A program made the position numbers. 18,349 nt of DNA from a virus (taxonomy: Duplodnaviria > Heunggongvirae > Uroviricota > Caudoviricetes): the IMG/VR virus record IMGVR_UViG_2654587685_000017, positions 1-18,349 of that record; one strand, written 5' to 3'. Below are positions 12,001 through 15,000 of the stretch, one piece after another. Within the stretch, counting starts at the first letter, position 1. Every line of letters starts with the position of its first letter.

Positions 12001-15000
12001 GGAAACATGAATAGAGCCCTTTCACCAATGGTTTCTGAATTTGAAACCATTGAACAAGAAAACAGTTACAACGAATGGCTGCGTGCGAAAGTAGCAACGA
12101 GCCTTGCAGATCCGCGCCCAGCAATTCCCCATGACGAAGTTGAGCGCAGAATGGCAGAACGCTTTGCTAAGATGCGCAAGGAACGGAGCAAGCAGTAAAA
12201 TGTTACCCGTGTTATGGCTTGAAAGCGCAGATACCGACCTAGATGATATAACTAGTTATATTGCTCGTTTCGACATAGATGCGGCTGAACGCTTATGGCA
12301 GCGATTAAGGGGTTGTGTGCTGCCGTTATCCGAACATCCGTATTTATACCCACCAAGCGACAGAGTACCTGGCTTGCGTGAGATTGTAGCCCACCCTAAC
12401 TATATAATTCTATACCGCGTAACAACATCAAGCGTTGAAGTAGTAAACGTGATCCACGCAAGACGCCAGTTTCCCTAACTTTCACTACCAATAGAAACAT
12501 AACAACCGCAACGACTTTATCAAAAGCGTTGTGTTTGTTATGTCCCGCGGTTTAGTTTTTACTTGACTTAAGTTTAATGTTTATTAAACTAAAAATACCA
12601 ACCCACCCCGCCCCACAGAACGCAGGGAAATACTTCGAGTTACCCGGCAGTGGTCAGGGGTTAAGTAGCCAGCCCGAGGCGTATGAACATGACGGCAGGG
12701 TTCAACTTTAATAACTATGCAGCAGGTTTTTGTTCCGCTACCCCGGCGTTAAGGGGAAACAGAGGGTTTCTCAGTGGGCGAAGTCAAACATCAGAATGGA
12801 AGGCATCCCGGGATCGGCAAAGAAGCAGCAATGGCGCTTTATATTGACATCAGCGCCATTGCAGGACAGGTAAGAGTTATCAGAGCGGTAACTAAGCGGT
12901 ATGCGCCTTTACTTCAGAAAGTCTCTGGTGAGTGCACCGAAGATATTGTCAACGATTTCGTCATCGAACTGCGAGGACTCATCTTCAGTTACAAGGTGAC
13001 CACAATTTTTGCAGATGGCTCCCGCGAAACTGTCAGAGCCCTGCGGCTTAAAGGATGTGTCAAAGACTTCGCCACCACATTCTGGGCAAGAAAACTTGAT
13101 TGTATTCATAACCAATTTCCTCTCGAGTAACAGACCCCTCAGAGGATACCACCTCGCCTGACGTGGTTAAAAGCAGGCAACGCTAACCACAAGGAGCCGA
13201 CATGCAGAAACGAGAACCCGTCATCATCGCGCCAGACTATACCGATGATGAACTTTATGAGTGGATGCACCAGAAAATTAATGCAGCGCAGGATCTGAAA
13301 TGGGCCAATGAAGCCAGGGCTAAGCAGGCTGAAAATCTGTCCGCTCTGGAGCAGGATATCACCAATCTGGAAAAAGCAGCGGCATTAAGCATTGCCAGAA
13401 TGATTACATACCCGCGTTAATAGCTAACCAACGAAGCTAAGGTTGGTAATTAAGGAGTTCTCCACGGGTGAGGTGGAGTGCGTGCGCCGGACACGGGTGA
13501 GCATACGGCACTGACAGTTTACTGAAAGGATATTTCCCTGAAAAGTCAGACCATAACGCGAAAGCGCACGGCGAGGTAGCTGGTTCATAGATAGCCTGTC
13601 GTTAAATTTTCGTCGACCGTGCGCTTCCGGTTGTGGCAATCCGCGAAATGGCGCGGCGGTAAGTATGGAGGGGTTATTCCTTCCCCCGTTGAGGACACCG
13701 GGTTGTCAGGTTGACCATACGCTTAAGTGACAACCCCGCTGCAACGCCCTCTGTTATCAATTTTCTGGTGACGTTTGGCGGTATCAGTTTTACTCCGTGA
13801 CTGCTCTGCCGCCCTTTTTAAAGTGAATTTTGTGATGCGGTGAATGCGGCTGAGCGCACGCGGAACAGTTAAAACCAAAAACAGTGTTATGGGGGGATTC
13901 TCTGTATCCGGCGTTAATTGTTAACTGGTTAACGTCACCTGGAGGCACCAGGCACCGCATCACAAAATTCATTGTTGAGGACGCGATAATGAAAACGTTA
14001 TTACCAAACGTTAATACGTCTGAAGGTTGTTTTGAAATTGGTGTCACTATCAGTAACCCAGTATTTACTGAAGATGCCATTAACAAGAGAAAACAAGAAC
14101 GGGAGCTATTAAATAAAATATGCATTCTTTCAATGCTGGCCCGTTTACGTCCGATACAAAAAGGATGCTGCACAATGAATACAGCATTTGCACTTGTTCT
14201 GACAGTTTTTCTTGTTTCCGGAGAGCCAGTTGATATTGCAGTCAGTGTTCACAGGACAATGCAGTAGTGTATGACTGCAGCAACCGAACAGAAAATTCCC
14301 GGTAACTGTTACCCGGTCGATAAAGTTATTCACCAGGATAATAACGAAATCCCGGCAGGTCTTTAAAACAGTTCCGTAATAAATATCCGGTTTCATTCTT
14401 ATATGCCAGCAATGGCAGGGATTTGTTCACCCTTAAATCTGTAATGAGGTTAAAACAAAATGAGTAAAGTCTTTATTTGCGCCGCCATTCCGGACGAACA
14501 GACAACAAAGGAAGAAGGCGCAGTCGCTGTAGCCACAGCCATTGAAGCCGGCGACGAACGCCGCGCCCGAGCAAAATTTCACTGGCAATTCCTGGAACAT
14601 TATCCGGCTGCTCAGGACTGCGCTTATAAATTTCTTGTCTGCGAGGATAAACCCGGCATACCCCGCCCTGCCCTCGATTCATGGGATGCTGAATATATGC
14701 AGGAAAACCGCTGGGATGAGGAGTCTGCTTCCTTTGTCCCGGTTGAGACTGAATCAGATCCGATGAACGTCACTTTTGACAAGCTGGCCCCTGAAGTACA
14801 GAACGCTGTCATGGTTAAGTTCGACACATGTGAAAACATCACCGTTGATATGGTGATTAGCGCGCAGGAATTGTTGCAGGAAGACATGGCAACATTCGAC
14901 GGACATATCGTTGAAGCGTTGATGAAAATGCCAGAAGTTAACGCCATGTATCCGGAGCTTAAGCTGCATGCCATCGGGTGGGTTAAGCATAAATGTAAGC

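Follow-up and report, generated by a model that had tools for sequence, protein, structure and literature searches.

A perfect inverted repeat separates DicF from dicB

What does the long inverted repeat between the small RNA gene dicF and the toxic gene dicB do? We studied it in a stretch of phage DNA (the window; 18,349 nucleotides; Caudoviricetes; IMG/VR record IMGVR_UViG_2654587685_000017) that is an O157:H7-type Qin-like prophage. A preliminary description of the window had reported a perfect 18-bp inverted repeat at 13825-13970. The repeat is there, and each arm is one base pair longer than described. In a repeat search of the window, the arms lie at 13824-13842 and 13953-13971, are complementary at 19 of 19 positions, and enclose a spacer of 110 nt. 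(The left arm reads TGAATTTTGTGATGCGGTG.)

As RNA, the helix extends further. G13823·U13972 and A13822-U13973 add to the base of the 19 perfect base pairs, so that the helix, which we call P1, has 21 contiguous pairs (13822-13842 with 13953-13973, both arms on the + strand), 19 of them the Watson-Crick pairs of the repeat. The energy of the duplex is -33.3 kcal/mol. P1 is present in both the minimum free energy (MFE) fold and the centroid fold of 13755-14000 (z = -4.6).

The repeat was said to lie just 3' of DicF and just 5' of the Shine-Dalgarno (SD) sequence of dicB, and this is correct. The DicF sRNA and the U tract of its terminator occupy 13762-13819 on the + strand: the annotated 53-nt RNA is at 13762-13814 (1649382-1649434 in the MG1655 annotation, with MG1655 = window + 1635620), and the Rfam model for DicF (RF00039) matches 13763-13814 with 76.7 bits. 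The repeat is not part of that model, which stops at 13814, while the repeat begins at 13824. On the other side is the ribosome-binding site of dicB (13977-13991, + strand), with the SD sequence GAGGA at 13977-13981 and the ATG at 13989-13991; the translation matches the Pfam family DicB. These are 4 nt and 16 nt from the base of P1, respectively. The other ORFs around the element are ydfD, which is downstream with dicB, and a ydfC-like ORF upstream. A simple scan for promoters and terminators across 13400-14300 found nothing relevant (it also missed the terminator of DicF itself).

Inverted repeats do arise at random, and one reading is a chance repeat without any function. The statistics rule this out, together with the conservation and covariation that are described below. 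With spans of up to 400, this is the longest perfect inverted repeat in the 18-kb window, and the runner-up has 12 bp. Simulating the window 300 times with a first-order Markov model yielded chance repeats of at most 15 bp, as compared to 19 here. Also, the arm sequence is found at just two places in the window, even if up to three mismatches are allowed, and none of 200 shuffles contained two matches. The earlier judgment that the repeat was unlikely to be due to chance was sound, and we give essentially no credence to a functionless repeat.

The perfect 19/19 allele is natural, as several O157:H7 genomes are 100% identical to the window over 13815-13985 (171 nt). More broadly, among 5,426 complete genomes of E. 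coli, 4,642 contain a relative of the element; the median number of places per genome is two.

The pairing is maintained in + strand RNA

We gathered relatives of the element by BLAST searches of phages and of E. coli genomes and by scanning IMG/VR and GTDB genomes for exact patterns (a 3' hairpin motif). (The GTDB scan yielded 11 loci, some of them in implausible metagenome-assembled genomes that are probably contaminated, and these served as extra alleles only.) There were 233 instances of the dicB/kil type, with 36 distinct pairs of arms. From these we considered an alignment, A3, of 32 distinct long-helix alleles of the dicB/kil subfamily.

If the repeat forms a long duplex in the transcript, as the preliminary description proposed, then related prophages should have compensatory changes. 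They do. Across A3, 98.2% of the P1 cells form standard pairs, versus 32-40% if the partners on the 3' side are shifted by 1-3 columns. Three of the P1 pairs show two-sided changes (U-A to C-G, A-U to G-C, and C-G to U-A). Another eight P1 pairs vary on one side, and every time the change goes through a wobble pair. The wobbles also indicate which strand is involved: there are 56 G·U or U·G cells versus 9 A·C or C·A cells, and the proportion of cells that pair is 98.2% for + strand RNA versus 91.2% for the - strand.

The K-12 allele makes the same point. The dicBF locus in the Qin prophage of K-12 is orthologous to that of the window (98% identity over 481 nt), and the two share DicF, the spacer, and the start of dicB. 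Its arms are GATGTGGTG and CACTGCATC, with two tandem G·U wobbles where the perfect 19/19 O157:H7-type allele of the window has G-C and C-G. As DNA, the K-12 repeat matches at only 17 of 19 positions, but the RNA helix is intact. The K-12 allele and the asymmetry of 56 versus 9 cells argue against a palindrome that is read by a protein, against a cruciform, and against a - strand RNA. From these patterns of substitution, we conclude that the repeat acts as + strand RNA and not as DNA.

We also considered other ways in which the repeat might act as DNA, because the preliminary description had suggested a protein-binding or invertible element. The window's allele does have a perfect 19-bp terminal repeat, as would a segment that inverts, a palindrome that forms a cruciform or binds a protein, or a miniature transposon bounded by terminal inverted repeats, and the homology breakpoints of mosaic prophages fall at the end of the right arm (where the query ends, at 274). 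But related copies with wholly different arms still pair, and K-12 combines an imperfect DNA repeat with a fully paired RNA.

For inversion, we built an artificial query in which the inner 110 bp was reverse-complemented and compared it to the 5,426 complete E. coli genomes. There was no high-identity full-length match to this flipped query, and the best match was 82.3% identical. Although 60 records cover at least 80% of the query, the twelve that were listed are forced alignments at 82.3% only, and the match that we examined (L232) is an allele in the direct orientation with a different middle. We rejected an invertible segment. We also rejected a miniature inverted-repeat transposon (MITE): the flanks, TTTTTAAAG and TTGTTGAGG, do not form a target-site duplication, no dicF-dicB junction without the element was found among the sampled BLAST matches, and the covariation of the arms is that of an RNA helix. 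Overall, it is very improbable that this is a DNA element of any of these kinds.

The spacer appears to be a diverged relative of STnc100 and PasD

The preliminary description viewed the 110 nt between the arms as a loop. The length is right, but this is not a loop: the spacer is a conserved multi-helix RNA domain, with P1 as its closing helix. A 26-aa ORF in this inner segment (13844-13924) was considered as a coding sequence and rejected, because alleles carry indels there that are not multiples of three.

In an Rfam scan with an E-value cutoff, STnc100 (RF02076) was the only RNA family over the spacer, and the remaining matches were noise. The STnc100 model matches 13812-14021 with 39.7 bits (E = 2.9e-7), which does not reach the gathering threshold of 47. 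We then built our own covariance model, R1, from an alignment (A4) of 61 members of the family, with the dicB/kil-type members left out. R1 matches 13827-13968 along the full length of the model, with 73.6 bits and an E-value of about 8e-21, although part of this score is imposed by construction, because members of the family were collected by exact matches to 17 nt of this element, in P5 and its flank. The window also contains a bona fide copy of STnc100 (1351-1540 on the - strand), which R1 scores at 109.5 bits.

R1 has five helices (P1 to P5) around one junction, and all of the window's helices are on the + strand. The inverted repeat is the counterpart of the closing helix of STnc100. P2 (13846-13861) is a hairpin, GCGGC-UGAGC-GC(A)CGC, which is homologous to the CCCCC...GGGGG hairpin of STnc100 in the R1 alignment. 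P3 (13862-13909) is an arm of variable length that is closed by GGA/UCC in the R1 structure; alleles have indels here, and the total inner length ranges from 98 to 124 nt. P4 (13910-13936) is another hairpin of the R1 structure, in which GGCGUUAA pairs with UUAACGUC around an 11-nt loop; in the dicB/kil subfamily it has compensatory pairs at two positions. P5 (13938-13952) is the hairpin CCUGG-AGGCA-CCAGG, which is part of a near-invariant motif of the family, UCACCNGGAGGCACNNGGCACC. Thus the core helices and motifs of STnc100 (P1, P2, P4, and P5) are all present in the spacer, with the caveat that the search for members used 17 nt of P5 and its flanks as its pattern.

Covariation across the family supports this structure. 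We ran RNAalifold on an alignment (A1) of 88 distinct members, and it recovered a 7-bp core of P1 and one hairpin each on the 5' and 3' sides; every variable pair shows compensatory changes in 17-34 sequences. Three pairs in the core of P1 covary in 17-29 of the 88 sequences. In P2, compensatory changes affect three of the five pairs, in 27-34 sequences. P5 has a compensatory change from G-C to U-A in 16 of the 88 members, and for most of the columns of this motif, the invariance was imposed by the search pattern. In an explicit count, 91.6% of the A1 cells pair, versus 35-47% in slid controls, and there are 230 compensatory cells versus 87.5 in shuffles. (The left-arm anchors were picked among GGTGNNN candidates, partly by their complementarity, and the shuffle controls are not probabilities because IMG/VR entries are redundant and related.)

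The window's domain shares with STnc100 and PasD a P1 that ends in GGUG/CACC, the GGUGAAU motif, the P2 hairpin, and a P5 of the form CCNGG-AGGCA-CCNGG. It also differs from them in several ways. Besides the score of 39.7 bits against a threshold of 47, P1 has 21 bp instead of 6-9 bp, and P2 is of the GCGGC type instead of the CCCCC type. The 3' side of the core has no intrinsic terminator; the SD and ATG of dicB come instead. And the domain is in an early-left operon, whereas STnc100 and PasD are near holin, Stx, or late genes. Given the covariance model and the shared helices, the spacer appears to be a diverged member of the STnc100/PasD family of phage RNAs. In the literature as we searched it, PasD is tied to STnc100, with no mention of dicF or dicB.

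Reported RNase III processing between DicF and dicB

RNase III acts on about two helical turns (at least 20 bp) of double-stranded RNA that is largely uninterrupted, and its staggered cuts leave 2-nt 3' overhangs. P1 offers at least 20 bp of uninterrupted double-stranded RNA, on the transcribed strand, and it is maintained as RNA. There are well-known precedents for RNase III sites in long-range helices that bracket a structured RNA, namely the stems of the 16S and 23S rRNA precursors and the sites in T7 early mRNA. The RNase III hairpin in the leader of lambda N lies beside the SD of N and can modulate translation. The dicF-dicB spacer has no sequence relationship to any of these, but the layout is similar. 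In each case a helix of at least two turns closes a structured segment of a polycistronic transcript, where staggered cuts would part the flanking products, and in lambda N the site is also directly 5' of the SD of an early gene in a lambdoid left operon.

Is P1 cut by RNase III? For the orthologous locus in K-12, the answer is essentially known. In the passages that cite Faubladier, Cam & Bouché 1990, two later papers (PMC5069750, which is Balasubramanian et al. 2016, and PMC9438474, a 2022 review) give DicF two 3' ends: the terminator produces a 53-nt form and RNase III produces a 72-nt form. If we count 72 nt from the 5' end of DicF at 13762, we arrive at 13833, which is inside the left arm (with 3 nt of slack on either side). 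By this arithmetic, the 72-nt end as those passages report it maps into the left arm of the K-12 repeat as well, and the lengths suggest that the downstream site of Faubladier 1990 is the P1 stem. Because the reported 72-nt end is made by RNase III and falls at about 13833, the main idea of the preliminary description, that the repeat is an RNase III substrate that defines the 3' end of DicF, is already known biology, at least as those passages summarize the 1990 work. The idea holds for the minor, 72-nt form only, as the main 53-nt form ends at its own terminator.

Other reports are consistent with processing here. A 2009 review (PMC2777011) lists the dicA-dicF-dicB intergenic regions among the substrates of RNase III. 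Table S1 of Gordon et al. 2017 (PMC5371410) has a site in the dicF-dicB intergenic region (NC_000913.3:1649470), with 0 reads in the wild type versus 26 in Δrnc and the label "Known: Yes". This site corresponds to 13850 in the window, which is not in the left arm but 8 nt past it, within the domain. The table is based on coverage and is noisy (many silent genes have 0 versus 30-60 reads), so we view this peak as weak corroboration.

A 2023 study of the operon (PMC10448788) describes transcripts that read through the operon and treats only an upstream RNase III cut, which forms the 5' end of a DicF precursor of 190 nt. Judging from the length of 190 nt, this cut is expected near 13627-13630. 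That is the right arm of an upstream stem (13559-13629, + strand, with arms at 13559-13571 and 13617-13629), which we identified in the repeat search and as a helix in the MFE fold.

We propose that the inverted repeat is the closing helix of a structured domain of about 150 nt in the + strand polycistronic transcript of dicBF, between the terminator of DicF and the ribosome-binding site of dicB. When polymerase reads through the DicF terminator, P1 would form, and RNase III would cut it. A cut in the left arm would produce the 3' end of the 72-nt DicF, about 19 nt past the terminator form. Given the rule of 2-nt 3' overhangs, the partner cut in the right arm is predicted at about 13963/13964, and it would leave a dicB mRNA with a leader of about 25 nt that retains the SD. 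The two cuts together would excise a core of about 129 nt. (The right-arm cut and the exact cut positions are inferred.) Since the terminator defines the end of the main DicF species, this processing would be limited to read-through transcripts. On those transcripts, the cut helix would separate the sRNA from the message for a toxic gene. We are fairly confident in this proposal as a whole, that is, that P1 forms in read-through dicBF RNA, is cut by RNase III, and closes a diverged STnc100/PasD member, having been lengthened into a substrate.

The division of the read-through transcripts between the sRNA and the dicB message would help to set the amounts of each. As an RNase III cut at this place has been in the literature since 1990, the cut itself adds little. 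What is new here is that P1 closes a conserved phage RNA domain that is related to STnc100 and PasD, and that a lengthened P1 accompanies the leaders of toxic early genes.

Two domain classes, and other possible roles for P1

Copies of the domain fall into two classes. Those with a P2 of the CCCCC type (similar to STnc100 and PasD) have a P1 of 6-9 bp and an intrinsic terminator 37-60 nt later, and they are often ahead of genes for holins, sialate esterases, or TolA-like proteins. In those with a P2 of the GCGGC type, an ORF starts 36-48 nt downstream of where the right arm begins, and P1 has at least 20 bp, with one exception. The ORFs that follow encode DicB, KilR, a 282-aa Ash/Rha protein, and a 94-aa protein of unknown function. 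The exception is the terB leader of P7 and D6, with a P1 of 9 bp and two compensatory pairs relative to the window.

This arrangement raises the question of whether P1 mainly works without being cut, as a cis element of dicB that limits access of the 30S subunit to the SD or protects the message, with cutting as an incidental event or a way to relieve the control. The base of P1 is just before the SD, and the spacing of +36 to +48 is kept before four unrelated ORFs. The lambda N leader is a parallel as well. However, in the terB leader of P7 the same domain precedes a gene although its P1 has just 9 bp, so this placement does not require a long helix. Computed accessibilities go in opposite directions: if the domain is removed, the predicted probability that the SD is unpaired rises from 0.2-0.3 to 0.6, but for the AUG it falls from 0.5 to 0.13. 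As the thermodynamics are mixed, we did not use the accessibility of the SD as evidence. Control of dicB translation by P1 is plausible, and a role as a cis element is compatible with our proposal of RNase III cutting. As for its being the main role of P1, we consider this a reasonable possibility, although not the one that we would expect.

Another possibility is that the function lies in the enclosed core, which would act in trans or bind a protein as STnc100 and PasD may do, and that the long P1 is a signal for its excision, much as in rRNA precursors. The conservation of the core (GGUGAAU, CGCGG, and UCACCNGGAGGCACNNGGCACC) goes far beyond what an RNase III site needs. Cuts at about 13833 and 13963 would leave a P1 of 8-9 bp, as in the free-standing copies, and free-standing relatives have been detected as abundant Hfq-associated sRNAs (preprint 10.64898/2026.05.13.724894). 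But Gordon et al. 2017 (PMC5371410) list 0 reads from the wild type at the K-12 position that corresponds to 13850 (weak evidence, because the operon is repressed under those conditions), the MG1655 annotation has no RNA of such a size between dicF and dicB, and the literature describes even the function of STnc100 as unclear. We consider it rather unlikely that release of the core is the point of the helix. If a dicB-type core does have a function of its own, this would be the more interesting reading of the locus.

A broader idea, which we offer tentatively, is that the spacer belongs to a widespread, functionally uncharacterised group of five-helix phage domains that lead genes for host killing or lysis (dicB, kilR, and an antirepressor-like gene in one class, and holins in the other). 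In the early-operon class, a lengthened P1 might then allow RNase III to release the core or to switch the toxic gene on or off, and the near-invariant core from GGUGAAU to UCACCNGGAGGCACNNGGCACC might be a binding site for a protein or ligand. At a more practical level, the placement with STnc100 and PasD and the shared architecture may be useful, as they open a widespread phage RNA to concrete tests.

The combination of an sRNA with a terminator, a long-P1 domain, and an FtsZ inhibitor is not limited to dicBF: we also found it in Stx phages and in the Rac prophage. In Rac, the Hfq-binding sRNA KilS (b4833 in MG1655) and its terminator are followed by the same domain and by kilR (b1352), although KilR is a different protein from DicB. 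P1 in Rac has about 22 bp (10 bp, a 1-nt bulge, and 12 bp), and unlike the window's, its right arm has a bulged A and a U·G pair. No mapping of RNase III cuts in the P1 of kilR has been reported. Gordon et al. 2017 (PMC5371410) list a nearby site, at 1418510.

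A second candidate RNase III stem, upstream of DicF

We found a second inverted repeat upstream of the DicF small RNA (plus strand, arms at 13559-13571 and 13617-13629; 13 nt, 92%). In the predicted minimum-energy fold, these arms are part of a longer, imperfect helix. The 190-nt DicF precursor owes its 5' end to a published RNase III cut (PMC10448788), and in the window this cut should fall at around 13627-13630, which coincides with the second repeat. There would then be two RNase III stems, so that DicF would be flanked by one on each side.

The predicted minimum-energy structure of 13755-14000 also contains a long-range pairing that encloses the entire five-helix domain of the dicF-dicB spacer. 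(On the plus strand, GACGUUU at 13769-13775, in the 5' region of DicF, pairs with AAACGUU at 13993-13999, in codons 2-4 of dicB.) This predicted pairing may be due to chance.

Relative to K-12, the window has an extra C at 14168 (plus strand), which joins the frame of dicB to that of ydfD and gives an open reading frame at 13989-14267 of 92 amino acids rather than 62. Within the fused frame, the ydfD portion is cut short at 14265 (14265-14267, plus strand), where GAG has become TAG. Among complete E. coli genomes, 13700-14180 has no match above 99.0%, so these changes may be strain-specific decay or sequence errors.

The domain beside other phage small RNAs

The Rac prophage of MG1655 (locus L354, minus strand) resembles Qin in having three parts in the same order: a small RNA with a terminator (the Hfq-binding KilS, 2406-2503), the domain, whose closing helix P1 is about 22 bp (2256-2398), and a gene for an FtsZ inhibitor (kilR, 2009-2230). 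A Δrnc-dependent site just upstream of KilS, 1418510, is in the list of Gordon 2017 (PMC5371410).

In phage contig L068 (minus strand), a domain with a long P1 (5751-5897) has IsrK-type (5594-5670) and C4-type (5482-5569) RNAs and an Ash/Rha protein gene directly downstream. Thus, the domain recurs beside processed phage small RNAs (DicF, KilS, and IsrK/C4). The domain can also be placed upstream of the small RNA, besides downstream: in three IMG/VR contigs (L005, L007, and L020), a KilS/DicF-like sequence (GTAGTCCTGGCGGTACCAG...) lies within about 25 nt 3' of a GCGGC-type domain with a short P1 of 9 bp (for example, L005 3507-3644, minus strand).

In four other IMG/VR phage contigs (L015, L024, L080, and L100), the domain is present two or three times on a single contig, with some copies less than 300 nt apart. 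Their terminator-linked copies precede P21-type holins, Phage_holin_8, a SASA esterase, or a TolA-like gene.

The window itself holds both a full STnc100 copy (1351-1540, minus strand, 132 bits) and a diverged relative, the dicF-dicB spacer. P1 of the STnc100 copy is GCAUGGUG/CACCAUGC, with compensatory changes relative to the dicB-type P1. Other RNAs on the minus strand include two tRNAs (2240-2313 and 2418-2490) and sok (6741-6916).
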